DNA of 64,000 nucleotides. Source: an uncultured Chloroflexia bacterium (GTDB taxonomy: Bacteria; Chloroflexota; Dormibacteria; CF-121). The position numbers and the translations under genes were made by a program. Where the stretch lies: NCBI GenBank assembly GCA_963795805.1, contig CAWCIV010000001.1, positions 581,859 through 645,858 of the forward strand. Reading direction: 5' to 3'. Each line of letters opens with the position of its first letter. The stretch's first letter is position 1. The notes below the pieces were generated by a model. The model searched no databases and was not told the DNA's origin. It saw only the letters and a list, made by a program, of their open reading frames with translations. Shown one piece after another: positions 1,312 through 56,562 of the stretch.

Positions 1312-2921
1312 TTGACAAGTGTTCTGGCGAAGTATGAAATTCGCTCAGGCCCGGCCGAGGGCCAAACACGCAAGGAGGGAACATTGGCTGTAGATGCGGC
1401 GTCTGAGGACGTCTTAGTCGAAAAACGGAAACTCAAGAAGTCGCTCTTCCGCTTCGACATGATCTTCTTCACGGTCTGCGCGATCCTCGCGATCGACACC
1501 ATCGGGCAGACGTCGTCATATGGGGCCCAGGCGATCTTTTGGTTGGTGGTCTCGGCGGCGACGTTCCTCATCCCGTATGGGTTGCTGACCATGAGCTGGG
1601 GACCACGTTCCCGGTGGAGGGCGGTCCGTACGAGTGGGTTCGGCTCGCCTTCGGCCACATGGCTGGCGCCATCACCGCCGTGCTCTACTGGCTCAGCAAC
1701 CCGATCTGGCTGGGCGGCACCCTGGCTGCGACCGCGATCGCTGCGTTGGACGCGCTCTGGGGCACCAAGATCGGCGGCAATACCGGGCTCTCGATCCTCG
1801 TCGGCCTCGCCTTCATTTGGGTCGCCGTGATGATGAACATCCTGTCCCTGCGCTCGATGAAGTGGGTGCCGAACCTCGGCGCCCTCGTCAAGATCGGCCT
1901 CTTTGCTCTCTTCGCCGTGCTCGTCCTGGTCTCCGGCGGCCAGCATGGCTTCAAAGGCAGTCTTGGCGGCATGTTCGACGGGCTCGGTCCGGCGTTCATC
2001 GGCGTCATCGGCGTCCTGGTCTTTCAATGGGTTGGCTTCGAGGTCCAGAGCAACGCCAGCGAAGAGATCGACAACCCACAGCGCGACATCCCCCGGGCGG
2101 TTGCCCTCTCGGCGGACCTGATCAGCGCGCTCGGATACGCGGTGCCGATCATCGGCGTCATCCTGGTCCTCAGCAGCAAGGACATCTCGAATGTGAGCGG
2201 CTTCGTTGCCGGCTACCAGGCCGTAGTCAGCAATGCGCTCGGCACCACCGGCGCCAACCTATTGAACGGGATCGTCGGGGCCGCGGTCGTGTTTGCGCTC
2301 CTTTCAAGCGGGACGGTCTGGCTGATGGGTTCTGACCGCTTGATGGCGATCGGCGCGCTGCAGGGCTCGGGCCCTCGCCGCCTTGGCTATTTTTCCAAGC
2401 GGTTCGGGACGCCGGTCCCGGTGAATGTCCTGTCGGGTATCCTGGCGAGCCTCTTTTTGATCGCAAACTTCCTGATCACCGGCGGCAGCCTGAAGAACTT
2501 CTTCACGATCGTGCTCGGCCTCGTGATCTCGACAACCACCTTCTCGTACGTGCTCGTCTTCCCGGCGATTGTTGTCCTGCGCAGAAAGTACCCGAACGCG
2601 CGGCGGCCATATCGCATCGGCGGCGGCGTCGTTGGCGTGTGGGGCGCAATGCTGCTTTGCGAGGCGTATGTTGTGGCGGCCACGATCTTCTCGCTCTGGC
2701 CGAACCTATTCTCAGACAAGGTGACGGGCGCAGTCTCGGTCGGCGGTGTGAGTATCGGCCGCGGCACGTATGAGGTCACCGTTTTCGTAGCGACGGGCGT
2801 GATGCTGGCAATCGCAGTCGCCTTTTATGTCATCGGGCGCAAGCACGCGGTTCACGACCGCTGGCCGGATGAGGTCACGACGGCCCCCAGGCCCGAACTG
2901 GTAGGGGCGCGCAGAGTTTAG
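1312..2921 (+). pseudogene. APC-family amino-acid permease; N-terminal ~95 codons (ORF 1312-1830) out of frame with body (ORF 1539-2921); single-base frameshift near 1597-1601
   Basis: N-terminal fragment LFRFDMIFFTVCAILAIDTIGQTSSYGAQAIFWLVVSAATFLIPYGLLT joins ...ELGTTFPVEGGPYEWVRLAFGHMAGAI only after a +/-1 shift at a GGGG run; multi-TM permease body otherwise intact. Confidence 0.5.
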
Positions 2922-2931
2922 ACTGCGTCGC

Positions 2932-4044
<1,113 letters not shown>

Positions 4045-5766
4045 ACGATCTGGCCGCCGACGATGGTGGCAAGGACCGACGCGCTCATGATTCGATCCGG
4101 ATTGGCGAGGATGTCCTGGTCGAGGATCGCGAGGTCGGCCAGCATGCCCGGCTCGAGTGTCCCGACCTGCCGCTCCTGCCAGGCGGCATAGGCCGCCCCC
4201 GACGTGTAGCCGGCGAGCGCCTGGGCGACCGATAGGCGCTGCTCGGGTAACCAGCCACCGGTAGGGCGGCCATCCGCGGTCGTCCGGTGGACCGCCGAGT
4301 TGAGCCCGAGCCGCGGATCGAAGGAGACAACCGGCCAGTCGGAGCCGAACGCCAGCCGTCCACCCGCATCCAGGATGGATCGCCACACCCAGCCGCGCGA
4401 GGCCCGGTCTCGCCCGATCTTCGAGGTGAACAGATCGAGCTGGGCCGGTTCCGGGTCGCCGTGATAGGGCTGCATGCTGGCGATCACGCCCAGCCCGGAA
4501 AATCTCGGAATGTCGCTTGGATCGATGGTCTCGATGTGCTCGATGCGATGCCGCCGCTCGCGCTGGCGGATTCCGGGCCAGCGCGGATTCGTAGGCGTCG
4601 AGGGCAAGGCGCACGCCCGCGTCGCCGATGCCATGAATCTGGACCTGCCAGCCACGGGCATCGGCGATCCGGACGGCCTCGGCGAGCTCGCCCGGCTCCC
4701 ACACCGGCCGGCCACGAGCACCCGGCTGGCTCGCGTCGCAGGCCCTCATAGGGCTCGAGCATCATGGCCGTCTCGGACTCGATGACGCCATCGGCGAAAG
4801 CCTTCACGATGCCGCCGGAGACCCACGGGTCGGCGCGACGAGGGAAGGCGACCTCCTCGTAGAGAGCCAGCCGGCGTTCCCAATCCGCCATGCCCAGCCC
4901 GGGCTCCATCCGCTGGGCGAGCCGGATCCGGATCCGGGGCCGGCCGGAGTCGGCAAGGGCCTGATAGATCTCGAACTGCTCGAGGCCAGCGCCGGCCTCC
5001 TGGACGCTGGTCAGGCCGTGCTGGTGAGCGAGCCCGATCGCCTGGGCCAGGCTATGCAGGTCCTGCGCGATGGTCCGGGCGGGTAAGGCGAGGTCGACCA
5101 GGTCCATGGCCGCCTCTTTGAGAATGCCCGTGGCGTGTCCGGCGGCATCACGCTGGATCTCACCCCTAGGTGGGTTCGCCGTCGCGTCGTCGATCCCTAG
5201 TCGCGCCAGGGCAGCCCCGTTGACCCAGGTGGTGTGGCTGTCGTAGGCCTCCAGCGCGACCGGGCGGCCGGGCACGATTCGATCCAGCAAGGCGCGATCG
5301 GGCATCCCGCCCTCGAAAACGGCGTAAAACCAGCCGCGCCCGAGCAGCCAGTCGCGACCGGGGTGTCGTGCCGCGAAGTCATCGATCCGTGCCAGGACGG
5401 CCCCAATGGTCGTCTCGGCCGAGAGTTCGAGGTTTTCGAGGTTGCGCGCCCCGTTCAGGAAGTGGACGTGGGCGTCGTTGAAGCCGGGCATGATCAGGCC
5501 GCCGGCCGCATCGACGACCCTCGTATTCGGACTGATGAGGCCGCTCAGCTGCTCGTCAGAGCCGGAAGCGAGAATGCGGCCACTTTGGATCGCAACGGCC
5601 GTAGCGGGGCCGGCAGCGGGCCAGACGCGGCCATGGTGCACCACGATCGAGGCGGAGGGTTCGATGCACAGGATCGTAGCGGCCGGTGCCCACCGTTTAG
5701 GTCATTGACGAGGTCCGGGCCGCCTGCTACGTTTGGCGGAGTTTAAGGGAGAGGAGGGAACCCCCC

Positions 5767-7323
5767 ATGTCGTCACACGGTCTCAAGCCGCCTCCGACCA
5801 GGATCGAGGCGTCCAGTTCCCAGGAAGCGGCCGATGCGCGCGACCTGGCCGGGTTTGGCTACAAACAGGAACTCAAGCGCATCCTCGGCGTCTACTCCAG
5901 CTTCGCCGTGGCGTTCTCCTATATCTCGCCGAGCACTGGCATCTTCACGCTCTTTGCGCCGATCGGCCTGGCGATCGCCGGGCCCTTCTTCTTCTGGAGC
6001 TGGCCGCTGGTCGCGCTCGGTCAGTTCATCATCGCGCTGAACTTCGCCGAGGTCAGCTCACATTTTCCCGTTGCAGGGTCGGTTTACCAGTGGACGAAGT
6101 ACCTTTCCAACCGCGCCTACTCCTGGATGACGGGTTGGATCTACCTGTTTGCCGGCATCATCACGGTCACCGGGGTGGTCGCGACGATTCCGGGGCTGGT
6201 GCTCATTCCGTTGCTCAACAACCTTGGCATGGGCATCACGAACAATGCGCAGACGCAGGTGGCGATCGCGCTGGTGATTCTCGCCAGCACCACCTTACTG
6301 AACGTCTTCGGGGTTCGCCTGGTCGCCCTGATCAACAACACCGGGGTCGTGTTCGAAATCCTGGGGATGGTGGTCTTTGCGCTTGTCCTCCTGATCTTCT
6401 ACCATCACCAGCCGGCCACGGTCATCTTCGACAGCAGCTACCTGGGCTCCAGTAATCAGGTCGGCGTCTTCCTTGCCGCCATGTTCATGTCCCTGTTCGT
6501 GATCTACGGCTTCGATACCGCCAGCACGCTTGCGGAGGAGACGAGGAATCCGCGAGTGGAAGCCCCCAAAGCGGTCCTTGCCTCCGTGGTCGGGGCCTTC
6601 ATCATCGGCACCGTCTTCCTCCTCGCCTTGATCATTGCCATACCGAACATGCAGAAATTCGTCGCGGGTGCAGGGGCAACCCCTCCAACGATCACGTCGC
6701 CCGCCGACGTTCTCAACGCCGTTCTTCCCGGGTGGATGGCCAACCTCTACCTCGTTGTCGTCCTCGCCGCAATCTACGTCTGCTGCCTGGCGATCCAGAC
6801 TTCAACCATCCGGCTGGCGTTTGGCATGGCGCGCGATGGCAAGCTCCCGCTCGCGCGGTTCTACAACAAGGTCAGTCCGACGCTGCACACCCCCGTCATC
6901 ACCTGCCTGGTCGTGGGCGTCCTTGCCGCGCTCCCGTTCATTTACTATGCCGGCGCCGGGCTGATCGCCATCGTCGCCACCGGCATGATCTACCTGGCCT
7001 ACATGCTGGGCAACATCGCCATCCTGCTCGCCCGGCTGCGGGGTTGGCCGACCGAGGGCGCGCCGTTCAAACTTGGCGGCTGGGGCACGATCATCAACGT
7101 CCTCGGCCTTGCCTGGGGCGCCTCGATGCTCGTCAACTTCCTCTGGCCCCGTCCCGCGAGTAATCCGAGCGTCAATGCGATCCTGGCCCCTGGCGGCGCC
7201 AGCCTGGGAGGGTTCGGTGACGCCGTGCCGATCTTTGAACTCGTGGTGGCACTGATCGTCGTCGTCGGCGCGATCTACTACCTCGTGGCGCAGCGCGAGC
7301 AGACCCGGACGGTATCTCGGTGA
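5767..7323 (+). CDS. APC-family amino-acid permease
   Basis: 518 aa, about 12 predicted TM segments; typical amino-acid permease N-terminal region; RBS GGAGAGGAGGG upstream of the ATG. Confidence 0.8.
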   Translation: MSSHGLKPPPTRIEASSSQEAADARDLAGFGYKQELKRILGVYSSFAVAFSYISPSTGIFTLFAPIGLAIAGPFFFWSWPLVALGQFIIALNFAEVSSHFPVAGSVYQWTKYLSNRAYSWMTGWIYLFAGIITVTGVVATIPGLVLIPLLNNLGMGITNNAQTQVAIALVILASTTLLNVFGVRLVALINNTGVVFEILGMVVFALVLLIFYHHQPATVIFDSSYLGSSNQVGVFLAAMFMSLFVIYGFDTASTLAEETRNPRVEAPKAVLASVVGAFIIGTVFLLALIIAIPNMQKFVAGAGATPPTITSPADVLNAVLPGWMANLYLVVVLAAIYVCCLAIQTSTIRLAFGMARDGKLPLARFYNKVSPTLHTPVITCLVVGVLAALPFIYYAGAGLIAIVATGMIYLAYMLGNIAILLARLRGWPTEGAPFKLGGWGTIINVLGLAWGASMLVNFLWPRPASNPSVNAILAPGGASLGGFGDAVPIFELVVALIVVVGAIYYLVAQREQTRTVSR

Positions 7324-7375: not shown

Positions 7376-7651
7376 ATGGCCGTCAAGATCCGGGTCCCGG
7401 GTGCGCTCCGCCAGTTGACGCGTGGCGCTGCGATCGTCGAGGTCAGCGCACAGGACGTCGGCCAGGCGCTCGATGCGCTGAACGAGCAGTTCCCGGGATT
7501 CCGCGAGCGCCTTTATGACGATAAGGGACAGCTGCGGCAGTTCATCAACATCTATCGCAACGACGAGGACATCCGCTTCGGATCGGGACTCAAGACGCCA
7601 CTGAGCGAGACTGACGATCTTTCGATTGTTCCGGCCGTCGCCGGCGGCTGA
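7376..7651 (+). CDS. CysO/MoaD-type ubiquitin-like sulfur-carrier protein (ThiS/MoaD family, C-terminal AVAGG)
   Basis: 91 aa ending ...DDLSIVPAVAGG; FINIYRNDEDIRF core closely resembles the mycobacterial CysO sequence FVNIYVNDEDVRF...ILPAVAGG. Confidence 0.8.
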   Translation: MAVKIRVPGALRQLTRGAAIVEVSAQDVGQALDALNEQFPGFRERLYDDKGQLRQFINIYRNDEDIRFGSGLKTPLSETDDLSIVPAVAGG

Positions 7652-7657
7652 GCCCAG

Positions 7658-7888
7658 ATGGCGCGGACGAGCGTGCGCCTGACGTTCCGCCGTGACACCC
7701 TCAATATCCCCGTGATCTATCAGATCGGCAAGGATTACAAGGTGGTCACAAACATCCGGCGCGCCGAGGTCAAGGACGAAATGGGGTGGGCCGATCTCGA
7801 TCTCGACGGGGAGCAGCCGGAGATCGAACGTGCCCTTACCTATTGCCAGAACCAGGGGGTCGAGGTGCAGCGCCTGGGGCCGGCGTGA
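7658..7888 (+). CDS. stand-alone NIL-domain protein (MetN C-terminal-like domain)
   Basis: 76 aa; pattern [65 protein letters not shown] matches the NIL domain layout; 7 nt after cysO-like stop. Confidence 0.55.
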
Positions 7889-8973
7889 GAGTCGCCGTCG
7901 CGATGAGCGGCGGCGTCGATTCCTCGGTGGCGGCGGCGCTCATGCGGGATGAGGGCCACGAGGTCTTCGGCGTGACGCTCCAGCTCTGGCCGAAGGAGAT
8001 GGCGGCCCGCGACTTCGATAAGCACCACGGCTGCTGCTCGCTGGACGCGGTCGAGGACGCGAGGCGGGTTGCGACCCGGCTCGGAATCCCGTATTACGTC
8101 CTGAACTTCGAGGACCAGTTTCGCGCGGCCGTGATCGAACCCTTCACCACGTCGTACCTGGAGGGTCTCACGCCGAACCCCTGCATCCGCTGCAACGAGA
8201 CCATCAAGTTCGGCCTGCTTCTCCAGAAGGCCCTCGCCCTCGGCGCCGACGTCCTCGCCACCGGGCACTATGCCCGCATCGATGATGGTGAGGGCGGGCT
8301 GCTGCTGAAGAAGGCGGTCGATCAGCGCAAGGACCAGTCCTACGTGCTGTACCAGCTCGGCCAGGGTGAGCTGCGCTCGCTCCGGTTCCCGCTCGGCGAA
8401 TGGACAAAGGCGCAGGTCCGTGCCCGCGCCGCGGAGCTCGGGCTCGTGACCGCCCTGAAGCCCGAAAGCCAGGAGATCTGCTTTATCGCGGACGGCAGCT
8501 ACCGGGACTTGTTGAAGACGCGCTTCGCCGAGCGGGTGCGCCCGGGACCGGTAATCGATGAAAGCGGAGCCGTGGTCGGCGAGCACGACGGGGTCGCGAT
8601 GTACACCGTCGGGCAGCGCTCCGGCCTGCGACTGCGATCGGCCGGTCCCGCCGCAGAACCGAAGTACGTGAGCGCGATCGACCCGATCGCGAACACGGTC
8701 ACCATCGGAGGCAATGCCCGAATGTTCGCGACCGCCTGCCGGGTGAATGACGTCCGCTATGTCAGCGGCGCGGCGCCGTCGGGTCCATTTCAGGCGCAGG
8801 TCAAGGTGCGATCGCATGCCGCCGACGCTGATGCGCTCGTCTGCCCCCGGGGTGACGAGGCGACGATCGAGTTCGCGGAGCCGCAACGCGCCCTGGCGCC
8901 CGGCCAGGCGGCGGTCTTCTACGACGGCGACCGCGTGGTCGGCGGCGGCCCGATCCGCGCGACGCCCCGGTGA
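7885..8973 (+). CDS. mnmA: tRNA-specific 2-thiouridylase MnmA (PP-loop ATP pyrophosphatase)
   Basis: [15 protein letters not shown]-loop; HHGCCSLD and [12 protein letters not shown] catalytic-Cys motifs; GTG start overlaps NIL stop (GTGA). Confidence 0.85.
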
Positions 8974-9266
8974 CTCAGCTCGACCTGGCAGCGCAGCACC
9001 CCCTCCTGCCGGTTGCCGCGCAGATCCTTCTTGCGTACCTGGCATCGGTCGGCGGCGTCCTGGCGGCAAAACTCGCCTGGGAGGGTCGGACGGCGTACTG
9101 GCTTTCGGTTCTCGGCGTGCTGCTCTTCCTGATCGGGGCGCTCTGGGGGCGAGGCATTCTCGCCTCTGGGACGACCTTTAGCGCGGTGGGGGCGGGCATA
9201 GCGATGGTGATCATCGGGGTCGCCCTCGACCTCCTCTTCGGGCCACCCTTCAGCACGACCAAATAG
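8970..9266 (+). CDS. small membrane protein (3 predicted TM), unknown function
   Basis: 98 aa hydrophobic ORF whose start overlaps the mnmA stop (GTGA); no recognisable motif (no NuoA FD.E signature). Confidence 0.45.
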
Positions 9267-9274
9267 CATTACCG

Positions 9275-10054
9275 GTGATGGACGCGTCCGACAAGTACAT
9301 GAGCGCGGCGATCGTCGCCCGCAAAGACTACGGACCGACCCTCTTCAGTGTTTGGATCAAGCCCCCGGAACCCTTGCCGTTCAAGGCCGGACAGTACGTC
9401 GCCTTCGGGGTCGAGCACAGCGACAAGGTGCTCGAACGGGCCTTCTCCATCGTCTCGAGCCCGCTCGAGGCGGAGCTGGAGTTCTTCATCGAGATGGTCC
9501 CTGAGGGCGCGCTCTCGCCGCAGCTACACCGGCTGGCCGTCGGCGACCACGTCTACATGCGAAAGAAGGCGAAGGGCATCTTCAACCTCGATGCAAAGTC
9601 CGGCCACCGGAAACACTTTCTGATCTCGACGGTCACCGGAATCGCCCCCTATGTCAGCATGGTGCGCACCCTTGCCCGGGACCTTAGGGAGGGTCGCCTG
9701 ACAGAGCCCCAGCGCCTGGTTATCCTGCAGGGCGCCGCGCGCTCCGACGAATTCGCCTACGATCGCGAGCTGATCGAGGCCGCGGCGGAGTTTCCCTGGG
9801 TGACCTACATCCCGACGATCAGCCGGCCCTGGGAGGATCCGGAGTGGGGCGGCGAGCGGGGAAGGGTGGACGACCTCGTGCGCAAGTACTCGGACACGCT
9901 TGGCCTCGAGCCGGCGGAGACCACCGCCTACCTGTGTGGCAACCCAGGCATGATCGTCAACGCCCGCGACATCCTGCGCCGCCGCGGCTACGACCACGCC
10001 GCGATCAAGGAAGAGACGTACTGGAAGCCGGGGGAGGGTGAGGTTGAGTACTGA
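9275..10054 (+). CDS. ferredoxin-NADP+ reductase-type flavoprotein (FAD/NAD(P)-binding two-domain oxidoreductase, no Fe-S domain)
   Basis: RAFSIVS (RxYS FAD motif), LISTVTGIAPYVSM (GTGxAP NAD(P) motif), YLCGNPGMI; 259 aa. Confidence 0.7.
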   Translation: MMDASDKYMSAAIVARKDYGPTLFSVWIKPPEPLPFKAGQYVAFGVEHSDKVLERAFSIVSSPLEAELEFFIEMVPEGALSPQLHRLAVGDHVYMRKKAKGIFNLDAKSGHRKHFLISTVTGIAPYVSMVRTLARDLREGRLTEPQRLVILQGAARSDEFAYDRELIEAAAEFPWVTYIPTISRPWEDPEWGGERGRVDDLVRKYSDTLGLEPAETTAYLCGNPGMIVNARDILRRRGYDHAAIKEETYWKPGEGEVEY

Positions 10055-10667
10055 GATAGAATCTCTCGCCGTGCCGCTGATCGGGGCGCTTCCCCAGTCG
10101 ATCACAGACCAACCTGCCGTCCTCATCATCTATGTGCTGCTTGTCGTCGCGATCGGCTCGGCGCTGGCGAGCGTCCTGCTGCGTAGCGTGCTCTACGCGA
10201 TTGCCGCCTTCGCTGTCACCATGGCCGCGGTGGCGTTTCTCTACCTGATGCTGGCGCCATTCCTCCTCTTCGCCGTCCAGCTGTTGATCTTCACGACGGT
10301 GAGTGCCGGCCTGCTGATCGGCTTGCTTCGGACCACGACCGGGCTCGACGAGGCGCCTGCCAGCCCATTTAGCGCTGAGTTGATCGCCGGCGCGGCCATT
10401 GCTGCGGCCGTCGCCGCCCTGCTCGGGGTCGTCGTCGGAGCCACCCACTGGCCGGTGCATTTCACGGACCTCACCGAAGGCTTTGGACATTCGCTTCTGA
10501 ACACCTACATCGTCGGGATCGCGGTTCTGGTAGTGATGGTCGCCTCGGCGGCTCTTGGCGCCGGCCTGCTCGTAACCCAGCGTCTCGGCCGGCGCGCCGC
10601 GGTGACCGCGCCTCCGGCGGCCCTGCAGGGGCGGCAACGGCCACGGCGACCGGAGCCCCGCCGATGA
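10038..10667 (+). CDS. nuoJ: NADH-quinone oxidoreductase subunit J-like membrane protein
   Basis: SVLYAIAAFAVTMAAVAFLYLMLAPFLLFAVQLLIFTTVSAGLLIGLL matches the NuoJ/ND6 core; start overlaps FNR-like gene end. Confidence 0.65.
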   Translation: MRLSTEIESLAVPLIGALPQSITDQPAVLIIYVLLVVAIGSALASVLLRSVLYAIAAFAVTMAAVAFLYLMLAPFLLFAVQLLIFTTVSAGLLIGLLRTTTGLDEAPASPFSAELIAGAAIAAAVAALLGVVVGATHWPVHFTDLTEGFGHSLLNTYIVGIAVLVVMVASAALGAGLLVTQRLGRRAAVTAPPAALQGRQRPRRPEPRR

Positions 10668-10981
10668 GCGCCGGCCTAAACCTGGTCCTGACCACCTCGG
10701 CCATCGTGTTCGGCATCGGCGCCCTGGCGCTGCTCGTCAAGCGGAGTGTTGTCGTCATGCTGATCGGCACGCAATTCATGCTGACCGCCGGCAGCCTCGC
10801 CTTTATCGCTTTTTCACGCTTCGGCTTCGGCGCGGTGAACCCGTCCCGAGGCCAGGTGGTCGCCCTGATCGTGTCGGGATTGGGGATCGCCGAGTTGGCG
10901 GCGGGGCTGGCGATGGCGGCGATCATCTACCGCGAGCAGCGGACCTTCCTGGTCGACGAGTACGAGTCGGTAGCGAGCTGA
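10664..10981 (+). CDS. nuoK: NADH-quinone oxidoreductase subunit K-like (NuoK/ND4L)
   Basis: 105 aa, 3 TM; MLIGTQFMLTAGSLAFIAFS and C-terminal AAGLAMAAIIYRE typical of NuoK; ATGA overlap with nuoJ. Confidence 0.7.
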   Translation: MSAGLNLVLTTSAIVFGIGALALLVKRSVVVMLIGTQFMLTAGSLAFIAFSRFGFGAVNPSRGQVVALIVSGLGIAELAAGLAMAAIIYREQRTFLVDEYESVAS

Positions 10982-10982
10982 C

Positions 10983-12935
10983 GTGACGCTGAGTCTCCTC
11001 GCGGCAGCCGCCAGGGGTCCGCTGGATACCTGGAGCCCGACCTTTCTCGCGTTGCTGGCCTTGCTCCTGCCGCTGATCGCGATCGTGTTGATCGCCGCCT
11101 TCACGATTGACTCGCGCCGCCTGAGCGCCGGCATCGCAGTCCTCTTCACGCTGGCCAGCGCGATCAGCGCGCTGCTGGTCCTGGCGATCGAAATCACCCA
11201 CCCGCTGCATCTCGAACGCGAGGGCACGTTCCTGCAATTCTTCACCGGCCTGTCGGGTACGGCCGCGGAATTCACGCTCAAGTGGGGGGTCACGGCCGAT
11301 CCACTGGCGGCCGTCATGCTGGCCACGGTCGCCATCGTCAGCGTCCTCGTGCAGCTCTACGCGCTGGGATCGATGCGGCGGGATGACGGGGCGATCCGGT
11401 TCTTCATGGTCATGCTCGTCTCCAGCTTCGCGATGTTCGGTTTCGTCCTCTCGACGAACTACTTCGAGCTGTTCCTCTTCGGCGGCCTGCTGACGGTCTC
11501 GTCGTACCTGCTCATCGGTCACTGGTGGCAGCGAGATGATGCCGCGCGAGCCGGGACCCGGACTTTTATCGTCTTCGCGATCGCGGACGTTGGCCTGTTG
11601 ATCGGGATCGTCTACATCTATTACCGGTTCAACGAGCTGAATTTCCAGGCGCTGGCGGGTCAGTACACCGGCGGCAAGGTGAGCTCGAACGGCCTCTTCT
11701 TAATGGCCCTCCTGGTGTTCATCGGCGCCGTTGCGCGCTCGGCGCAGTTCCCACTGCACGTCTGGCTCTCGGGCAGTGTCCAGGCGCCTGCCCCCGCCGT
11801 GGCGCTGATGCACTCGGCGACGGTGGGGGTCGCGGGGGTCTACCTGGTTGCCCGCAGCTATGCGCTTTTTATCGCGAGCCCACGTGCGCTCGTGGTCGTC
11901 GCGATCGTGGGTGGCCTGACGGCGGTGCTGGGCGTGGTCTGGTCCCTGTTCCAGGACAACCTGAAGCGGGCGATCGCCTACGCCACCATGGGCGAGCTTG
12001 GCCTGATGATGCTCGCGCTGGGGATCCGTGCCTACGGGGCGGGTGCCTTCGAGGTCATCACGCACGCCTGGCCCAAGGCGCTGCTGTTTCTCGCCGCTGG
12101 GATCATCATCCGCGAGCTCCGCACGGAACAGATGGCCGAGATGGGTGGACTGCTGCGGCGCATGCCGCGCACCGGTGTGATTGCGCTGATCGGGGTCGCG
12201 GCCCTGGCCGGCATCCCCCCGCTCAGCACCTTCTGGAGCAAGGACGCCATCCTGTCGCGCGCGCTGGCAAGCGGGAACCCCGTTTCCATCGCGGTCGTCG
12301 TCCTCACGACCTTCCTGCTCGCCGTGGCCGTCTTTCGAGTCTTCGCGCTGGTGTTCCTTGGGCAGACGGCGCGCCGGCGCCGCTTCGAGCCCGACCGGAT
12401 TCGTGAGGCGGGCGGTCGGGTTGCGCTCGCCATGATCCTGCTCGCCGTCGCCAGCGTCGTGGCGGGGGTCCGAGGATTCCCGGGGCGAAGTGACTACCTC
12501 GGCTTTGTCTCCTTCCACGGCCTCATCCCCTCGAACTCGCACCTGGTCGCCGCCGCGATCACGATCATCGCCAGCGTCGCGGGCGCCGGTGCCGCGCTCC
12601 TCGCCTACGGGCGCCGGCCTCTGCCGGCAATGCCACCGGCCCTTGCGCCGGCGCGGCAGGCCCTGGGCCAGGGCCTCTACCTCGACCGGGGCTATCAGTT
12701 CGCCGTCGATCGCGGCGTGCTGCCGCTCAGCGGCGCGTTTGCCTGGACCGATCGCCGGGTCATCGACCAGGGCGTCGACCTCGTCGGCGACTCCATCACG
12801 TTCGCCTCGACGCCGCGCCGGCGCCTGCCGCGGCTGCGCGCGCAGCACTTCGCGCTCGGCCTCTTCACCGGCCTGGTCGCCCTGGCCGCCGTCACCATCC
12901 TGATCGGCGCCCATCTGATCAAGGGCGTCGGCTGA
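10983..12935 (+). CDS. nuoL: NADH-quinone oxidoreductase subunit L-like (antiporter-like subunit with lateral helix)
   Basis: 650 aa; NuoL/MrpA signatures (WGVTADPLAAVMLATVAIVS, LIGHWW, HAWPKALLFLAAG). Confidence 0.85.
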   Translation: MTLSLLAAAARGPLDTWSPTFLALLALLLPLIAIVLIAAFTIDSRRLSAGIAVLFTLASAISALLVLAIEITHPLHLEREGTFLQFFTGLSGTAAEFTLKWGVTADPLAAVMLATVAIVSVLVQLYALGSMRRDDGAIRFFMVMLVSSFAMFGFVLSTNYFELFLFGGLLTVSSYLLIGHWWQRDDAARAGTRTFIVFAIADVGLLIGIVYIYYRFNELNFQALAGQYTGGKVSSNGLFLMALLVFIGAVARSAQFPLHVWLSGSVQAPAPAVALMHSATVGVAGVYLVARSYALFIASPRALVVVAIVGGLTAVLGVVWSLFQDNLKRAIAYATMGELGLMMLALGIRAYGAGAFEVITHAWPKALLFLAAGIIIRELRTEQMAEMGGLLRRMPRTGVIALIGVAALAGIPPLSTFWSKDAILSRALASGNPVSIAVVVLTTFLLAVAVFRVFALVFLGQTARRRRFEPDRIREAGGRVALAMILLAVASVVAGVRGFPGRSDYLGFVSFHGLIPSNSHLVAAAITIIASVAGAGAALLAYGRRPLPAMPPALAPARQALGQGLYLDRGYQFAVDRGVLPLSGAFAWTDRRVIDQGVDLVGDSITFASTPRRRLPRLRAQHFALGLFTGLVALAAVTILIGAHLIKGVG

Positions 12936-14401
12936 TGCTGCTCCTGAGCGCCATCGTCTGGGTCCCCGCAACCGCGGCCCTGCTCCTGCTCTTCTTCCCC
13001 ACGCGGACCCCGGCCGAGAAGGCCCGGATCCGGACCGTCGCCATGGCGGCGGCCGCCTTCGTCACCGCCCTCGACGTGCTGATGTGGTACGGCTTCCGCG
13101 ACCAGAGCGGCACCTATGCCTACGATGAGAGCCGCTCCTGGCTCCCGAGCCTGGCATCGAGCTATCACCTCGGGGTCGACGGCGTCAGCATGTCGCTGCT
13201 GCTGCTCGCCGGCATCCTCTCCCTGGTCGCGATCCTCGTCTCCAACCGGATCCGCGACGATGTCCGGGGATTCTTCATCCTCATCCTGGTGGTCGAGACC
13301 GGCGTCAATGGGGCGCTCTGCTCGCTCGACTTCCTGCTCTTCTTTCTCTTCTGGCAACTGCAAGCGGTCCCCCTCTGTTTTCTGACCGCCGGATGGGGTG
13401 GGCCACGGCGGCTGGCGGCCGCCTGGAAACTGCTCGCCGTCGAGATGATCGGGAGCGGCCTGCTGCTGCTGGCCATCCTGATCCTCTACATCAAGGCGCC
13501 GACTCATACGTTCGATATGGCCACCCTCCACGACCTGACCTTTCCGGCGTCTGCCTCCGGTCTCGTCTTCGCGCTTTTCTTTATCCCGTTCGCTCTGCGG
13601 CTGCCCGTGTTCCCCTTCCATACCTGGTTCACGGACGCGCAGGCAGAGGCCGCGCCGCCGGTCGCGATCATCCTGGCCGCCATCGTGACCAAGCTTGGGG
13701 CGTACGGCCTGATCCGGGTCAACGTCGGGGAGTTCCACTCGACGCTGCACAAGGTCTCGGGAGCGATCGCGGTGCTGGCGGTGATCACGGTCCTCTGGAG
13801 CGCCATCGCCGCCTTCCGCGAGGATGATTTGCGCCGGGTCATCGGCTACCTGGTGGTCGGCCACGGGGGCGTTCTGCTGCTGGCGGTAGCCTCGGGCTCG
13901 CCGGTCGCTTTGAACGGCGCCGTCCTCCTGATCGCAGCTGACGGACTCGCCGCCGCCCTCATGATCCTGATGGTGGCCGCCGTGGCAGAGCGAGCCAACA
14001 CGCGCTCCATCCGCGCCATGGGTGGACTCGCGGCGCGGATGCCCCGAGGTGCCCTCCTCTGGTTCCTCGGCGCCCTCGCCGCCCTGGGGCTGCCCGGGCT
14101 GGCCGTCTTTACCGGACAGCTTCTCGTGTTCCTCGGTGCCTACCCGAGCCAGCGGCTTGTCACCAGCCTCGCCATCCTCGGCAGCCTGCTGACGGCCGCG
14201 GTGATGGTGTGGACGTTCCAGCGCGTCTTCTTCGGATCGCTGAGCGAGGCCTACGTGAGGGTCCGTGATGTCGGAAGCCTCGAGCTCGGGACTGGCATCG
14301 GCCTGCTCTCCCTGCTGGCGCTGCTCGGGTTCCTGCCCGTGATCCTCATGGACAGCATCAACTTCTCGGTGCTGACGCTGCTCAGCGGAGTTGGTGGGTG
14401 A
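12935..14401 (+). CDS. nuoM: NADH-quinone oxidoreductase subunit M-like
   Basis: 488 aa antiporter-like subunit (SWLPSLASSYHLGVDGVSMSLLLLAG...HTWFTDAQAEAAPPVA). Confidence 0.85.
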   Translation: MLLLSAIVWVPATAALLLLFFPTRTPAEKARIRTVAMAAAAFVTALDVLMWYGFRDQSGTYAYDESRSWLPSLASSYHLGVDGVSMSLLLLAGILSLVAILVSNRIRDDVRGFFILILVVETGVNGALCSLDFLLFFLFWQLQAVPLCFLTAGWGGPRRLAAAWKLLAVEMIGSGLLLLAILILYIKAPTHTFDMATLHDLTFPASASGLVFALFFIPFALRLPVFPFHTWFTDAQAEAAPPVAIILAAIVTKLGAYGLIRVNVGEFHSTLHKVSGAIAVLAVITVLWSAIAAFREDDLRRVIGYLVVGHGGVLLLAVASGSPVALNGAVLLIAADGLAAALMILMVAAVAERANTRSIRAMGGLAARMPRGALLWFLGALAALGLPGLAVFTGQLLVFLGAYPSQRLVTSLAILGSLLTAAVMVWTFQRVFFGSLSEAYVRVRDVGSLELGTGIGLLSLLALLGFLPVILMDSINFSVLTLLSGVGG

Positions 14402-15828
14402 CGCTCGACAACGTCCTCGCGTTCGCGCCCGAGCTCTGGCTGCTCGTCGGCGCGGTCGTCGTCTTTGCGCTAGCCCGCTTCCGGCCGGGGTTCTCGGCGA
14501 CCGCTGTCGCGCTGGCCGCGGTGGCGCTGGCCTTTCTGGCGCTGCTGACACAGGCGAAGCAGACGATCACCATCCTCGACGGCGCCTTCCTGCTAGATGG
14601 GTACGCCATCGTCATCGACATGGCCATCCTGGTCGCCAGCGCGCTTGCGCTCCTCATCAGCTTTGGCGACGTCATCCCAGGTGAGTCCCGCGCCGGCGAG
14701 CTTGCCGGCTTCCTGTTGCTGGCGACCGTCGGAGCGATGCTGTCCGCCTCGGCGGCCGAAATGGTCGCCTTGCTGGTCTCACTCGAGTTGCTGGCCGTGA
14801 ACCTGTACCTGCTGGCGGCCCTGGCGCGCCGCGGCGGCGATGCGGCACATGCCGGCGTGGGCTACCTGGTTCTGGGCATGGCCGGCACCGCGATCCTCGT
14901 CTACGGGCTGGCGTTGATCTATGGGCTCACCGGCGAGACCCGGCTGGCGGCGGCCGGACGGGCGCTTCGCGCGATCGGGCCGGGCCAGCCGGCGGCCCTG
15001 CTCGCCCTCACCCTGCTGATCGTCGGCTTCCTCGGAAAACTCGGCATGACGCCGGTTCGCTGGTGGACCCGGGCCTTCGACCTGGGGGTCCCGATGCGGG
15101 TCCTGGCCTTCGTCTCGTCGGTGGGGGTGCTGGCCGGGTTTGCCGCCTTCACCCGGCTGCTCTGGTTGACATTCAGCTTCACATCGATCGGCTACCCGAC
15201 CGTGATCGCCGTCGTGGCGGCGATCACGATGACCGGTGGCGCCGTGCTGGCGCTGGCCCAGACCAGCGTCCGGCGGCTGCTGGTGTACTCGACGGTCGCG
15301 CAGGGTGGCTACGCCCTGGCGGCGATGGTCGATCTGCCGCGCAACGGCGTGCGCGCGGTGCTGGTATTCATGATCGCCCTCGGCCTCACCAACGTGTGCG
15401 CCTTCGCGGCGATGATGGCCTACGGGCGGGCCGTCCACAGCGACGCGATCCGCGACCTTGCCGGAATGGCTCGGTCGACCCCCGGCGTCGCGGTCGTGCT
15501 CGCCCTTGCGATCGCCTCCCTGATCGGGCTGCCCCCACTGGCGGGATTCTTCGGCAAGTTCGTCGTGCTGAAGGCGGTGGTCGACGGCGGCTTCGCCTGG
15601 CTGGCGGTCGTCGGCGTGCTCGACATCCTGCTCCTGGCTCTCTGCTACCTCCGGTTGGTCCGGGTGGCCTTTCTCGACCCGCCGGTCTACGAGGTCCCGC
15701 CACATCGGCTCGACTGGCCGCTGCGCCTGGCGATGGGCGTAAGCACCGCCGGGGTCATCTTCCTCGGGCTCGGGCTCGGACCTCTCCTGACCGCGGCCAG
15801 TTACGGCCAGCACAGCCTTGTGCACTGA
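14398..15828 (+). CDS. nuoN: NADH-quinone oxidoreductase subunit N-like
   Basis: 476 aa antiporter-like subunit; start overlaps nuoM stop. Confidence 0.8.
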   Translation: MTLDNVLAFAPELWLLVGAVVVFALARFRPGFSATAVALAAVALAFLALLTQAKQTITILDGAFLLDGYAIVIDMAILVASALALLISFGDVIPGESRAGELAGFLLLATVGAMLSASAAEMVALLVSLELLAVNLYLLAALARRGGDAAHAGVGYLVLGMAGTAILVYGLALIYGLTGETRLAAAGRALRAIGPGQPAALLALTLLIVGFLGKLGMTPVRWWTRAFDLGVPMRVLAFVSSVGVLAGFAAFTRLLWLTFSFTSIGYPTVIAVVAAITMTGGAVLALAQTSVRRLLVYSTVAQGGYALAAMVDLPRNGVRAVLVFMIALGLTNVCAFAAMMAYGRAVHSDAIRDLAGMARSTPGVAVVLALAIASLIGLPPLAGFFGKFVVLKAVVDGGFAWLAVVGVLDILLLALCYLRLVRVAFLDPPVYEVPPHRLDWPLRLAMGVSTAGVIFLGLGLGPLLTAASYGQHSLVH

Positions 15829-21424: not shown

Positions 21425-22149
21425 CGGCCACCCGCCGGGCGGGACTGGTGGCGCTCGCGGTCGGCGTGGTGGCGACCATGCTGATGCACGGGCGCGGGGC
21501 GGCGCCGCCGGTCTTCGACGGCATCGTGACGCCACCTTCCCCGTATCACTGGGCGTCGCCACCGCCCGAACTCCGATCCGGCAATGTGCCGCCGTCGCCG
21601 GGCGACGCCACCTTTCCCGTTCACAACGGCCAGGTAGCCGGCGGCAGCCTGCAAACCGGTGACGCCCAGGTCGTGATCTACTTCGGTGTCGGGCTCTTCG
21701 CGTTATCGCCCTCGGCCCAGAGCGTTCGATGCACCGTTACGCCGCTGTCGAACCCACCCCCGCCCCCGCCCGGGAGCCAGATCCGTGGCAACGTCTATCA
21801 CATTCAGTGTATCGAGCAGCCAGGTGGCAAGGTCCTGACGGCGGTCGGAACATTCAACCTGACGATGCGGTATCCGAGCGGTCCGTTCAAGGAGATCCAG
21901 TACGACGATGGCGCCGCCTGGCACCCGCTGCCAACCACGACCGTCGGCGGAGGCAACCCCTTTGCCGGTGCCCGGCCTGGCGCGTTCGGCGACTTCGCCG
22001 CCACGGCGCCGGCGGGGGCGACCGGGCCGGGGATCCTCGACTTCCTCGGACGCTCCCTCGAGTTCTACGGCATTATCCTGTTCGTGGTCGTGTTCGGCGT
22101 GATCGCGATCGTCCAGGAAGTTCGTCGCCGGAGGAAGGCCAGGCAATGA
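21421..22149 (+). CDS. hypothetical exported protein with polyproline segment and C-terminal TM anchor
   Basis: N-terminal hydrophobic segment, SNPPPPPPGS, C-terminal EFYGIILFVVVFGVIAIVQEVRRRRKARQ; GTGA overlap with upstream gene. Confidence 0.4.
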   Translation: MTATRRAGLVALAVGVVATMLMHGRGAAPPVFDGIVTPPSPYHWASPPPELRSGNVPPSPGDATFPVHNGQVAGGSLQTGDAQVVIYFGVGLFALSPSAQSVRCTVTPLSNPPPPPPGSQIRGNVYHIQCIEQPGGKVLTAVGTFNLTMRYPSGPFKEIQYDDGAAWHPLPTTTVGGGNPFAGARPGAFGDFAATAPAGATGPGILDFLGRSLEFYGIILFVVVFGVIAIVQEVRRRRKARQ

Positions 22150-23474
22150 CGCTGATCCCACTGCACGCGTTCGGCACGAGGTACGACCTGCCCGCGCCCC
22201 TGTATCTGTTTCTCCTGGGCGCGGGCGCGGTCGTCTTCATGTCGTTTCTCCTGGTTCTCCGGCAGCCGGTTGGCCGCCGTGTGCCATCGGGCGAGGATGT
22301 GGTGTCGGTTCGGCACGGGGCGAGCTGGCCAGGGTGGGTTACCGTGGCGCTTTCGTCGCTGCTCGTCGCCATCGGCCTGTTCGGTACCCAGAGCACGCCG
22401 GACAACGTCGCCGTCACCGCCTTCTGGCTGGTGTTCTGGATCGCCGTCCCGATCAGCATCGCGATCGTCGGGAACTTCTGGCCGTTCATCAGTCCGCTGA
22501 ACGTCGTCGCCCGATTGGTCGGCCCGCGTCCCCGTGTTCCGTATCCAACTGCCTGGGGATTCTGGCCCGCGGCGGTTTTGTTCTTTCTCTTTGCCTGCGG
22601 GGAGCTGATCTTCAATGCCTACACCACCACACCGGCCGGCGCGGCCGTGGTGATGCTGGCCTACGGCATCGTTAACGCGGTAATGGCGTCGGTCTTCGGC
22701 GCCGAGACCTGGCTACGGCGCGGGGAGGTCTTCTCGGTGCTGTTCGCCACCTGGGGCCGGCTGGGCTATTTCCGCTTCGGGGAGCCCGGTCGGCGCGGGT
22801 TCCTCGGTGGTCTCACCCGTCCCTTCGAGGCGTCGGTCAGCCGGCTGACGTTCGTCCTGCTCCTGCTCGTCTCGGTGAGCTTCGATGGCCTCCTCTCGAC
22901 CCCGAGCTGGAAGCAAATGGCAGGCGGGCTCCCGGAAAGCTTCAGGCCAGGCACCAGCGGCTACGTCCTGGTCCTGCTGGCGACGTTCGTCGCTTTGGTG
23001 GCGTTGATCTGGGGGCTGTTTGCCGGGTTCAGCGCGGCCGTGCGCGCCGTGGGTCGGCTGGATGCACCGTTCCTTCGGGTGATGTCGGGCTTGGTGCCAT
23101 CCCTTGTCCCGATCGCCTTCGGCTATCTCGTCGCGCACAACCTGGATTACCTGGTGATCAATGGCCAGCTGCTCATCCACCAGATTTCCGATCCCCTTGG
23201 CACTGGAACGCTCAATCTCTTCGGCACGGTCAACTACGAGCCGAACCCAAACCTGATCCCGACGGGGGTGATCTGGTATTTTCAGATCGCCCTGATCATC
23301 GCGGTGCACATTGCCGCGGTCGTCCTCGCCCATAACTACCTCGGCCGGGTGGCGCGCACGGAGCGGCAGGGCAAACAGGCGGAGTGGCCCTGGATCGTGG
23401 CGATGGTCGGGTACACGATGTCAAGTCTCTGGTTGCTCGCGCAGCCGATCGTGCAGGAAGGCACCAAAGGCTGA
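22146..23474 (+). CDS. polytopic membrane protein (about 10-12 TM), unknown function
   Basis: 443 aa, hydrophobic throughout; ATGA overlap with upstream gene. Confidence 0.5.
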   Translation: MTLIPLHAFGTRYDLPAPLYLFLLGAGAVVFMSFLLVLRQPVGRRVPSGEDVVSVRHGASWPGWVTVALSSLLVAIGLFGTQSTPDNVAVTAFWLVFWIAVPISIAIVGNFWPFISPLNVVARLVGPRPRVPYPTAWGFWPAAVLFFLFACGELIFNAYTTTPAGAAVVMLAYGIVNAVMASVFGAETWLRRGEVFSVLFATWGRLGYFRFGEPGRRGFLGGLTRPFEASVSRLTFVLLLLVSVSFDGLLSTPSWKQMAGGLPESFRPGTSGYVLVLLATFVALVALIWGLFAGFSAAVRAVGRLDAPFLRVMSGLVPSLVPIAFGYLVAHNLDYLVINGQLLIHQISDPLGTGTLNLFGTVNYEPNPNLIPTGVIWYFQIALIIAVHIAAVVLAHNYLGRVARTERQGKQAEWPWIVAMVGYTMSSLWLLAQPIVQEGTKG

Positions 23475-24283
23475 GCCTCCATCCACTGCATGCCAGCCTT
23501 TCGCTGACGACGTGGTCGCTGGACCCGACGGTCCTGCTCGGCACGCTAGCGCTGGGGGCGGGTTACGCCTGGCTGATCCGCGGCCGTGGCCAGATCGCTG
23601 CGTGGTCACCGGTCGCGCGTCTCTACTTCGCCCTGGCGCTGCTGGCCCTGATCCTGGCGCTCGAGTCGCCGATCGATGTCGGCGGGGATCGCTATCTGTT
23701 CAGCCTGCACATGGTGCAGCATCTGCTGCTGGCGATGGTGGTGCCACCCCTGTTGCTCCTCGGCCTCCCCGCGGAGTGGTTGCTGCTCGAGCGGCTCCGG
23801 ATCCCGCCCCTGGCCGCCATCGTAATTTTCAATCTTGTCCTCGCCGTCTGGCACCTGCCCTTCCTCTACGAGGCGACGCTCCGCAACGGACCAATTCATG
23901 TCGCGGAGCATCTGAGCTTTCTCGCCGCCGGGGTGCTTTTCTGGTGGCCGATCATGGCGCCAAGCACCCCCCGCCGGGGCCTCACCGCGATCGGGAAGAT
24001 CGCGTACCTCGGCTTCGCCGGGGTGCCGCCCACGATCCTCGGACTCGCCTTCATCCTGTCGCGGAGCGTGATTTACCCGTTCTATGCCGCGGCTCCGCGG
24101 GTCACCCCGCTGTCGCCCCTCGAGGACCAGGTGGCGGCCGGCCTCGTCATGTTCGGGCTGGGCAACCTCATCTATTTCGCGGCGATCGCGATCATGTTTT
24201 TCCGTTTGGATGACGCGGACGCCACAGCCGGTGACCTCGTCGGGAAGGCCCCGCAACAACCCCATGCCACAATGAGGTCGTGA
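23384..24283 (+). CDS. cytochrome c oxidase caa3 assembly factor CtaG-like membrane protein
   Basis: SLHMVQHLLLAMVVPPLLLLGLP...HLPFLYEATLRNGPIHVAEHLSFLAAGVLFWWPIM; only canonical start is GTG 23384 (overlaps upstream gene by 91 nt), real start may be later. Confidence 0.6.
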   Translation: MALDRGDGRVHDVKSLVARAADRAGRHQRLSLHPLHASLSLTTWSLDPTVLLGTLALGAGYAWLIRGRGQIAAWSPVARLYFALALLALILALESPIDVGGDRYLFSLHMVQHLLLAMVVPPLLLLGLPAEWLLLERLRIPPLAAIVIFNLVLAVWHLPFLYEATLRNGPIHVAEHLSFLAAGVLFWWPIMAPSTPRRGLTAIGKIAYLGFAGVPPTILGLAFILSRSVIYPFYAAAPRVTPLSPLEDQVAAGLVMFGLGNLIYFAAIAIMFFRLDDADATAGDLVGKAPQQPHATMRS

Positions 24284-24717: not shown

Positions 24718-24723
24718 TCGCGT

Positions 24724-25974: not shown

Positions 25975-25980
25975 CGCGCG

Positions 25981-43767: not shown

Positions 43768-43784
43768 CGCCGACGCCGGGTCGG

Positions 43785-44768: not shown

Positions 44769-44790
44769 GACCGCGGCGACGCGGCGCGCC

Positions 44791-48522: not shown

Positions 48523-48555
48523 CTGGCCGCTTCACTTTAGACGACTCTCGCGCGT

Positions 48556-49718: not shown

Positions 49719-49729
49719 GCGAATTGCGG

Positions 49730-51752: not shown

Positions 51753-51755
51753 CCG

Positions 51756-52508: not shown

Positions 52509-52541
52509 GGCCGCCTGCAGTCTAAATCAAGCCGTCAATCG

Positions 52542-52997: not shown

Positions 52998-53032
52998 GCC
53001 CCCATGATCGTGGCGGCCAATTTCGGCGGGCC

Positions 53033-54343: not shown

Positions 54344-54365
54344 CCGGCAAGTTTAAATAGGCGCG

Positions 54366-56561: not shown

Positions 56562-56562
56562 C

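Follow-up and report, generated by a model that had tools for sequence, protein, structure and literature searches.

The antiporter-like arm of complex I is normally regarded only as a pump that is driven by quinone reduction. In this paper we looked at a ten-gene operon that encodes homologues of the arm subunits NuoJ-K-L-M-N behind a sulfur carrier of the ThiS type, a NIL-domain protein, the tRNA thiolase MnmA, a small transmembrane (TM) protein and a ferredoxin/flavodoxin-NADP+ reductase (FNR). The operon lies on a 64-kb stretch of DNA (hereafter the window) from the 1.16-Mb contig CAWCIV010000001.1 of an uncultured bacterium. On balance, we favor an origin of this mosaic operon by descent and gene loss, through which a complex-I membrane module, now orphaned and remodelled, would have been left in one large clade of the soil phylum Dormibacterota.

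The partial complex I operons that are known are those without NuoEFG, and such operons use other electron donors (PMC4453560). An 11-subunit complex I of this kind is found in other Dormibacterota, in Dehalococcoidia and in cyanobacteria. The NuoJ-N genes of the window are orthologous to its last five genes, and they stand in the same locus and between the same flanks as in Dormibacterota with a full operon. The window differs in that it has FNR in place of NuoA, B, C, D, H and I, and in that 14 of 27 proton-path sites are substituted. Another partial nuo cluster without Q- and N-module subunits is nuo2 of Streptomyces coelicolor (SCO4599-4608), which was described as lacking NuoCDEFG and L and whose function was stated to be unclear (PMC9239103). 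Nuo2 thus retains A, B, H and I, and a complete nuo operon lies next to it; the window has J-N only and no other nuo gene was found in its 64 kb. The Mrp (Mnh/Pha) antiporter shares with the window a set of complex-I-related membrane subunits (NuoL-, NuoM/N-, NuoK- and NuoJ-like) and the lack of a redox module. The window NuoL also scores on MrpA models, but L, M and N score far higher on Nuo models; the Mrp subunit set is incomplete, with no MrpB, E, F or G in the window, and the TM5-Glu/TM7-Lys pair is altered in L and M. In the literature that we searched, on Dormibacterota respiratory complexes and on J-N-only clusters, there was no description of this arrangement, of a J-N-only nuo set or of this substitution pattern, in keeping with a first-pass annotation of the DNA, which knew of no such arrangement. 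What is unexpected is the repeated retention of an orphan, rewired P-module; an integrated sulfur-flavin-pump system is unsupported.

The ten-gene operon and its counterparts

All ten open reading frames (ORFs) are on the + strand and are tightly packed between 7376 and 15828, in a window with a GC content of ~66%:

7376..7651, + strand: ThiS/MoaD-type sulfur-carrier protein, 91 amino acids (aa); Pfam ThiS (PF02597) 54.8 bits, NCBIfam SAMP1 65.8 bits (cutoff 60)
7658..7888, + strand: stand-alone NIL-domain protein, 76 aa; Pfam NIL 50.7 bits
7885..8973, + strand: MnmA, tRNA 2-thiouridine(34) synthase, 362 aa, GTG start; NF001138 415.5 bits (cutoff 284)
8970..9266, + strand: small three-helix membrane protein, 98 aa; no Pfam or NCBIfam family
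9278..10054, + strand: Fpr-type FNR, 258 aa; Pfam FAD_binding_6 and NAD_binding_1
10071..10667 (longest ORF from 10038), + strand: NuoJ-like protein, divergent; Pfam Oxidored_q3 E = 5e-4, below cutoff
10664..10981, + strand: NuoK-like protein, 105 aa; Pfam Oxidored_q2 55.4 bits, NuoK model 56.3 bits (cutoff 57)
10983..12935, + strand: NuoL-like protein, 650 aa, with C-terminal extension; NCBIfam NuoL 408.6 and 389.3 bits, just below cutoffs
12935..14401, + strand: NuoM-like protein, 488 aa; TIGR01972 377.9 bits (cutoff 263.8)
14398..15828, + strand: NuoN-like protein, 476 aa; TIGR01770 260.5 bits (cutoff 332.6)

The first-pass annotation had read these genes as very likely one transcription and translation unit, and its coordinates and junctions were borne out when they were re-derived. 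Overlaps of 4 nucleotides (nt) are found from NIL to MnmA, from MnmA to the small TM gene and from NuoM to NuoN (GTGA at each) and from NuoJ to NuoK (ATGA), and NuoL overlaps NuoM by 1 nt. The gaps are 6 nt from ThiS to NIL, 1 nt from NuoK to NuoL and 8 nt from the small TM gene to FNR, or 11 nt if counted to the ATG at 9278, which is the start used by all FNR homologues. The longest ORF of the NuoJ-like gene (start 10038) overlaps FNR by 17 nt; from the GTG at 10071, a start conserved with the related contig described below, the gap is 16 nt. Promoter-like and terminator-like sites occur at the frequency of the shuffled-sequence background and none is located at any junction, where they would have counted against a single unit. 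The 5' neighbor, after a 52-nt gap, is an amino-acid permease gene, where NuoA, NuoH or Q-module genes would have spoken against the first description. The 3' neighbors are the gene of a class A penicillin-binding protein (PBP1A) and then that of a CDP-alcohol transferase. A Pfam comparison of essentially all long ORFs of the window yielded no NuoA-I, NuoE-G, Mrp, hydrogenase or E1 enzyme, and the NuoJKLMN homologues do stand without a nearby Q- or N-module. No Rfam family or tRNA gene was found in the window.

The same ten genes, with the same spacing and flanks, are present on a 141-kb JGI contig (L001). With a NIL-protein alignment as the query, a scan in which each GTDB species was represented by one genome gave 80 loci, which were annotated by tblastn. 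In 30 GTDB species (L015-L044; hereafter, with the window, the FNR-type clade) every contig of sufficient length has the order permease–ThiS–NIL–MnmA–small TM–FNR–J–K–L–M–N–PBP1A; these genomes are labelled Dormibacterota (one as 'Candidatus Dormibacter sp.') or bear older 'Chloroflexi CF_' names. The window's NuoM-like protein is 100% identical to a database protein, and a near-identical protein of the same cluster bears the name Candidatus Dormibacteraeota bacterium. Since order and spacing are the same on the L001 contig and in 30 species, the arrangement is not due to chance, and in Candidatus Dormibacterota these ten genes do form an operon that is translated as a unit.

In other Dormibacterota the orthologous locus has the order metM-like ThrC–ThiS–NIL–MnmA–small TM–nuoABCDHIJKLMN–PBP1A. 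One such locus, L011, holds the closest canonical NuoM (44% identity) and reads pyridoxal-phosphate (PLP) enzyme–ThiS–NIL–MnmA–131-aa TM protein–NuoA-B-C-D-H-I-J-K-L-M-N. Its NuoD was used as a query for Dormibacterota-named proteins, whose contexts were then inspected, and the layout of L011 is also that of L012/L013, L014, L095, L097, L099-L105 and L109. The window's downstream PBP1A gene is found in L012 and L099 as well, and the CDP-alcohol transferase gene after it in L012. The NuoJ-K-L-M-N homologues of the window follow the order of the 3' end of the full Dormibacterota operons, as expected of a complex I arm, and FNR occupies the nuoABCDHI position. Because flanks and gene order are shared with the full-operon relatives, the window locus is the same locus minus nuoABCDHI and plus FNR. 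This comparison shows that the layout of the full-operon relatives is the ancestral one, and that amino-acid permeases have taken the place of the PLP gene, and one Fpr-type FNR gene that of nuoABCDHI, in the clade of the window.

Other loci have also lost genes. L009/L010 have MnmA–small TM–J–K–L–M–N–thioredoxin-like–LPLAT, no FNR, and a flank as in L011. L053/L058/L068 have PLP–ThiS–NIL–MnmA–small TM–J–K–L..., again no FNR, and very divergent subunits (L053:2290-4983). L076 (8454-20219) has PLP–ThiS–NIL–MnmA and no nuo genes. Based on a rough neighbor-joining tree of MnmA, the flanks and an indel in the small TM protein, the FNR-type clade adjoins the L012-like full-operon clade, L009 adjoins L011, and both the L053 group and L076 stand apart. 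The loss of ABCDHI with retention of J-N would thus have taken place at least twice and probably three times, a count that is drawn from this simple tree.

In the source genome, nuo genes were looked for in the 64-kb window, where NuoA and NuoH, which make up the quinone channel and E-channel entry and which a complex I arm should have, are absent from the operon and from the rest; the 1.16-Mb source contig gave no NuoD match. In a collection of 5.8 billion proteins, NuoD of the Dormibacterota type (motifs GPHHP and FNWRE) forms 40 clusters, of which 39 belong to two full-operon clades (14 L011-like and 25 L012-like). All of the contexts examined in both large clades are full operons, including those of the most divergent subclade, which was targeted by a metagenome scan. 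At >=60% identity the FNR-type NuoM family comprises 120 clusters or more, and the census of 40 clusters contains no NuoD clade to match this abundance. The last cluster, single and rare, is L096 (8566-12660; JGI 3300038770, 113-kb contig), a mirror image of the window arrangement, in which nuoA-B-C-D-H-I, without J-N, lie between genes for citrate synthase (- strand) and a methyltransferase. Its NuoD has GPHHP/FNWRE, its GC content is 0.61 as against 0.66, and by its subunits it stands a little nearer to the L011 lineage. With so few NuoD clusters, full operons in all examined contexts of the two main clades and at least 120 FNR-type NuoM clusters, the FNR-type clade has most likely lost the ancestral Q-module.

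Proton-path residues and selection in NuoJ-N

The NuoJ-like protein has only a weak PDB match, to M. smegmatis NuoJ, and its position and alignment agree with the NuoJ of full operons. The NuoL-like protein appears to carry the lateral and anchor helix of a true NuoL, as its C-terminal extension aligns to residue 631 of cyanobacterial NdhF and the protein matches NuoL models over its full length. When the window subunits were aligned with complex I chains of known structure, key residues proved to be missing. The conserved relay of complex I comprises TM5 Glu, TM7 Lys, TM8 Lys/His and TM12 Lys/Glu in L, M and N, two Glu in NuoK and the TM3 Tyr of NuoJ. With the full-operon sequences as the reference for 27 canonical sites, we tallied the residues by locus type, using 4-8 full-operon and 17-25 FNR-type sequences for each subunit. 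Full operons are canonical at 27/27 sites, and the FNR-type clade is substituted at 14/27, consistently across its members, so that the proton relay is not the canonical one:

NuoK E36: Q in 25/25 FNR-type loci, E in 8/8 full-operon relatives
NuoJ TM3 Tyr: F, V, S or W in the FNR-type clade
NuoL E144: G or A in 23/23 FNR-type loci
NuoL Glu of AMEGP: Q or N in the FNR-type clade
NuoL H334: E in 23/23 FNR-type loci
NuoM E144: Q in 18/18 FNR-type loci
NuoM His of PDAH: Q in 18/18 FNR-type loci
NuoM H348: D in 18/18 FNR-type loci
NuoM E407: Q in 17/18 FNR-type loci
NuoN H224: R in 16/17 FNR-type loci
NuoN K247: V, L or A in the FNR-type clade
TM7 Lys of NuoL, M and N: a Lys/Arg mixture in the FNR-type clade

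In the window itself the TM3 Tyr of NuoJ (E. coli Y59) is Phe, and the TM2 Glu of NuoK (E36) is Gln37 while the TM3 Glu (E72) is kept. NuoL has E144->G168, K229->R252 and H334->E357 and keeps D178, H254, H338, K342, K399 and D400; NuoM has E144->Q141, K234->R222, H348->D336 and E407->Q395 and keeps K265 and H322; NuoN has K247->V244 and H224->R221 and keeps E133, K217 and K395. The residues kept across the FNR-type clade are NuoK E72, NuoL D178, H254, K342, K399 and D400, NuoM K265 and H322, and NuoN E133 and K395. At eight NuoM sites, compared in 150 representatives, the canonical series is E-K-H-E-K-H-H-E and that of the window Q-R-Q-E-K-H-D-Q. The pattern of this rewiring is that carboxylates become amides, Lys becomes Arg, and His becomes Asp or Glu. 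Subunits of L009 and L053 are altered further: the NuoL TM12 Lys-Asp is unconserved in L009 and both NuoK Glu are lost, as they are throughout L053/L058/L068. The description of a 'complete' proton-pumping membrane arm in the first-pass annotation does not hold, as the arm lacks NuoA and NuoH and has other residues at about half of the canonical positions of the proton relay.

The J-N genes are not pseudogenes; they are under purifying selection and are remodelled rather than decayed. This conclusion comes from pairwise ratios of nonsynonymous to synonymous substitution (dN/dS) of 0.09-0.36, mostly 0.14-0.25 and similar to MnmA, from full-length ORFs and from the conservation of the replacement residues, which are invariant within the clade. 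In ~25 species the J-N matches are single full-length high-scoring segment pairs with synonymous sites near saturation, and NuoL has 307 columns that are >=90% conserved within the clade. Frameshift flags raised in J-N were rejected as artefacts of cross-matches between the paralogues L, M and N; the window itself was flagged in this way.

The genes that accompany the arm

The small TM protein has homologues in 46 loci, among them the full-operon loci, and no Pfam family was found for 14 of these homologues either. It follows MnmA in all nuo-bearing locus types and was undetected in L076, the sole locus without nuo genes, and this distribution hints that it belongs with the membrane arm. Its dN/dS is 0.13-0.17. 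The possibility that it is NuoA was ruled out, since there is no motif match and the hhalign probability is 0.2%.

FNR has the two domains, the length of ~250 aa and the lack of an Fe-S domain that define the Fpr type. Its best PDB matches are bacterial FNRs (E. coli 1FDR, 7e-24), and its likeness to E. coli Fpr lies in the same two-domain architecture and length and in best PDB and NCBIfam matches within the Fpr-type group. It is not the E. coli Fpr equivalog, as it reaches 99 bits on NCBIfam PRK10926 against a cutoff of 390, and it differs from E. coli Fpr in that it sits in a nuo-derived operon and has a C-terminal extension, PGEGEVEY. This conserved acidic tail, which ends in Tyr (10029-10054) and is clear of the conserved NuoJ start (10071), is found in the operon FNRs and is absent from stand-alone homologues (54-64% identity). 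FNR is at the same operon position in all 30 species, with a dN/dS of 0.04-0.15; the closest homologue is 96% identical and named Candidatus Dormibacteraeota bacterium, and the L001 FNR is 77% identical. A general linkage of such reductases to nuo genes was ruled out, since the genes of homologues with 62% and 54% identity stand alone.

The sulfur carrier is the most conserved gene of the cluster, with ~88% identity across the clade and a dN/dS of 0.01-0.05. Its product combines the beta-grasp family match with a C-terminus (...AVAGG) that ends in Gly-Gly, as ThiS/MoaD proteins do, and corresponds to the MetO/CysO-like carrier of the relatives. The NIL gene adjoins ThiS in all 80 genome loci (Dormibacterota, Dehalococcoidia, SAR202 and Nitrospirota). 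MnmA is full length, has 338.8 bits on TIGR00420 (cutoff 237) and E = 1e-74 against PDB MnmA chains, and contains the PP-loop AMSGGVDSS, the motifs NPCIRC and ICF and the catalytic Cys pair; its dN/dS is 0.12-0.16. At the position of Asp-x-x-Cys in E. coli it has Cys-x-x-Cys (TPNPCIRCN), and the overall pattern, Cys-x-x-Cys...Cys, is that of the [4Fe-4S]-type MnmA.

The nearest described systems for these genes are two. In the first, MetM, a ThrC homologue, and MetO form a thiocarboxylate route to homocysteine (bioRxiv 10.1101/2024.10.14.618325). The relatives resemble this route, and the CysO/CysM pair, in having a ThrC-like PLP enzyme of the threonine-synthase family (TIGR00260, 268 bits) beside the ThiS-type carrier, as MetM stands with MetO. 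The window clade differs in having no PLP gene at the locus: a ThrC/MetM-like gene beside the carrier is absent from the window and from 30/30 FNR-type loci, where amino-acid permeases precede ThiS, and the window contains no Mec or MoeZ gene and no activating E1 enzyme for the carrier. In the second, TtuA/TtuB of Thermus, with Urm1/Ncs6, the likeness is that the gene of a Gly-Gly carrier is coupled translationally, here via NIL, to that of a tRNA 2-thiolase with three active-site Cys; the difference is that the window enzyme is MnmA (U34) and not TtuA (U54). MnmA is not known to use a thiocarboxylate. Since ThiS-NIL was retained next to MnmA although the MetM-like PLP partner is gone, the carrier may serve MnmA, and the ThiS-NIL-MnmA trio without a MetM-like partner is a candidate for thiocarboxylate-dependent s2U34 formation.

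Where the relatives have the ThrC/MetM-like gene, positions 1539-7323 of the window and all 30 FNR-type loci have 1-2 amino-acid permeases, a Rieske oxygenase and an amidohydrolase, and this may reflect a switch from the synthesis to the import of a sulfur amino acid. In Dehalococcoidia, SAR202 and Nitrospirota (L046-L094) the ThrC-like PLP enzyme, the NIL protein and the ThiS-type carrier are linked as a widely conserved trio, with neither MnmA nor nuo genes. The NIL protein of this trio, which is not among the pathway components in the available portion of the MetM/MetO description (bioRxiv 10.1101/2024.10.14.618325), may be an unrecognised component of that pathway.

Possible functions of the operon, and other genes of the window

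If the operon is a mosaic left by descent and gene loss, its parts would work as follows. The sulfur-carrier and thiolation genes would be inherited neighbors of the arm and not parts of one machine, with FNR and the sulfur genes acting independently of it. The Gly-Gly carrier, thiocarboxylated elsewhere, would together with the NIL protein hand sulfur to MnmA (Cys-x-x-Cys...Cys) for s2U34 in tRNA, and FNR would be an ordinary soluble NADPH:ferredoxin/flavodoxin reductase. Together with the small TM protein, NuoJ-K-L-M-N would still form a complex-I-like membrane arm, because the NuoL C-terminal extension and the overall folds are conserved. This arm would be without NuoH, NuoA and the Q-module and would have about half of its proton-relay residues neutralised or exchanged, and for these reasons we infer that it cannot be a proton pump driven by quinone reduction. 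The purifying selection, the conserved replacements and the retention in at least two other lineages point instead to a redox-independent function. Our best guess is a secondary ion transporter, in which the arm might act as an Mrp-like translocator driven by the proton-motive force via NuoL K342/K399/D400 and NuoN E133/K217/K395; a structural role in the membrane is the alternative.

Several points weigh against this reading. A Q-module may be encoded far away, or there may be a second complex I of foreign type with its own J-N, as 64 kb were examined, and split operons do exist in this group, as the nuoABCDHI-only locus L096 demonstrates. J-N would also be expected to evolve under purifying selection if they still served a complex I. 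The TM5-Glu/TM7-Lys pairs that are altered in NuoL and NuoM are needed by Mrp antiporters, and Pfam and NCBIfam gave no equivalents of MrpE/F/G among the operon proteins. The presence of FNR in all 30 species and its clade-specific tail, which are treated here as coincidental, could indicate a functional tie with the arm. Finally, the E. coli residue numbers are those that we take the literature to use; NuoK E36 and E72 are the ones recounted, on the 3rko_K alignment.

A bolder form of the proposal, which we put forward tentatively and hold to be rather unlikely, is that the small TM protein and NuoJKLMN are an autonomous, redox-independent membrane machine derived from the P-module, kept at least two and probably three times after the loss of the Q-module, with its charge network rewired in the clade of the window, and in the Dormibacter clade maybe joined by the tailed FNR as a partner or regulator. 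If this is true, transporters that descend from complex I would gain a new functional class, in a soil phylum that is among the most abundant uncultured ones.

Another option, less probable again, is a split complex I, in which nuoABCDHI is encoded at another locus, the J-N genes make a working arm of an 11-subunit enzyme and FNR might supply reduced ferredoxin. The ABCDHI-only operon of L096, in a related organism, and the purifying selection on J-N are in keeping with it, 11-subunit enzymes have no known NADH module and a reductase in the operon would make sense, and the genome was covered for 64 kb. Against this option, the relay residues were lost exactly in those lineages that lack ABCDHI at the locus and are 100% kept in full operons, and substitutions at several of these sites are reported to cripple complex I of E. 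coli. The NuoD census also does not fit, with 39/40 clusters in the full-operon clades and the 1/40 that is left, L096, being rare, of lower GC content and nearer to L011, nor does the source contig, with its lack of a NuoD match.

Each of these outcomes matters for complex I. The operon amounts to a natural deletion experiment, in which the redox half is gone. The arm is nevertheless maintained by selection across an entire clade, and in two or more further lineages, and a conserved set of substitutions has taken the place of the textbook Glu/Lys/His relay residues. An arm that works by itself would point to a redox-independent P-module function and to a surviving link between complex I and transporters of the Mrp type. 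If the arm serves a Q-module elsewhere, it would belong to a natural complex I that tolerates substitutions held lethal in model enzymes. Both bear on the unresolved coupling mechanism of complex I. Respiration in Dormibacterota will be overestimated by genome-based metabolic reconstructions in which the presence of nuoJ-N counts as complex I.

The first-pass annotation had seen in the operon a candidate for an undescribed system. In such a dedicated system the sulfur carrier with MnmA, FNR and the arm would work together, perhaps as an ion translocator driven by NAD(P)H through a docked FNR or regulated by FNR, or in membrane-energised sulfur trafficking for tRNA thiolation. Gene order and tight coupling do not vary among the 30 species, ThiS-NIL stayed by MnmA despite the loss of its PLP partner, and the operon FNR has its own tail and a very low dN/dS (0.04-0.15). 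Yet we find such a system quite improbable. As sulfur-nuo adjacency is found in full-operon relatives, it is an inherited, phylum-specific synteny that is older than the loss of the Q-module and comes from an ordinary 11-subunit operon, and it is not evidence of joint function. FNR is present in only 1/3 J-N-only lineages, the two others being without it, and in the other phyla examined ThiS-NIL goes with the PLP enzyme only and is never linked to nuo or MnmA. In addition, FNR has no Fe-S or quinone chemistry to drive the arm, whose E-channel residues are changed (NuoK E36Q, NuoJ Y59F) and which has neither NuoH nor NuoA.

It is hardly credible that J-N are a functionless vestige that decays after the loss of the Q-module and is held by phylogenetic inertia: the loss of canonical residues and the graded series from the moderately altered FNR type through the strongly altered L009 and L053 to L076 without nuo genes would fit such a decay, but the selection analysis has largely refuted it, with dN/dS like that of MnmA, intact full-length ORFs in ~25 species near synonymous saturation and replacement residues invariant in the clade, and ~5.8 kb of useless membrane-protein genes would be deleted quickly.

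The rest of the window contains several other genes. An ORF of 581 aa at 21729-23474 has good coding statistics and no Pfam match. At 24280-26727 the genes of a Fur-family regulator, a major facilitator superfamily transporter and a VIT1 iron transporter stand in a row and are likely to be a metal-homeostasis unit. DUF222 and HNH proteins are often part of mobile elements, and a protein with DUF222 and an HNH endonuclease is encoded at 29095-30321. Positions 42679-54343 are a nucleoside salvage island with adenosine deaminase, a Bmp/PnrA-type ATP-binding cassette importer, uracil phosphoribosyltransferase and purine and pyrimidine nucleoside phosphorylases, together with a 118-aa ORF without a family. 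On the - strand, at 52542-57566, TadE-like/TadG-like Flp-pilus assembly proteins (151, 549 and 172 aa) are encoded, and their genes are interleaved with salvage genes and an MntP gene.

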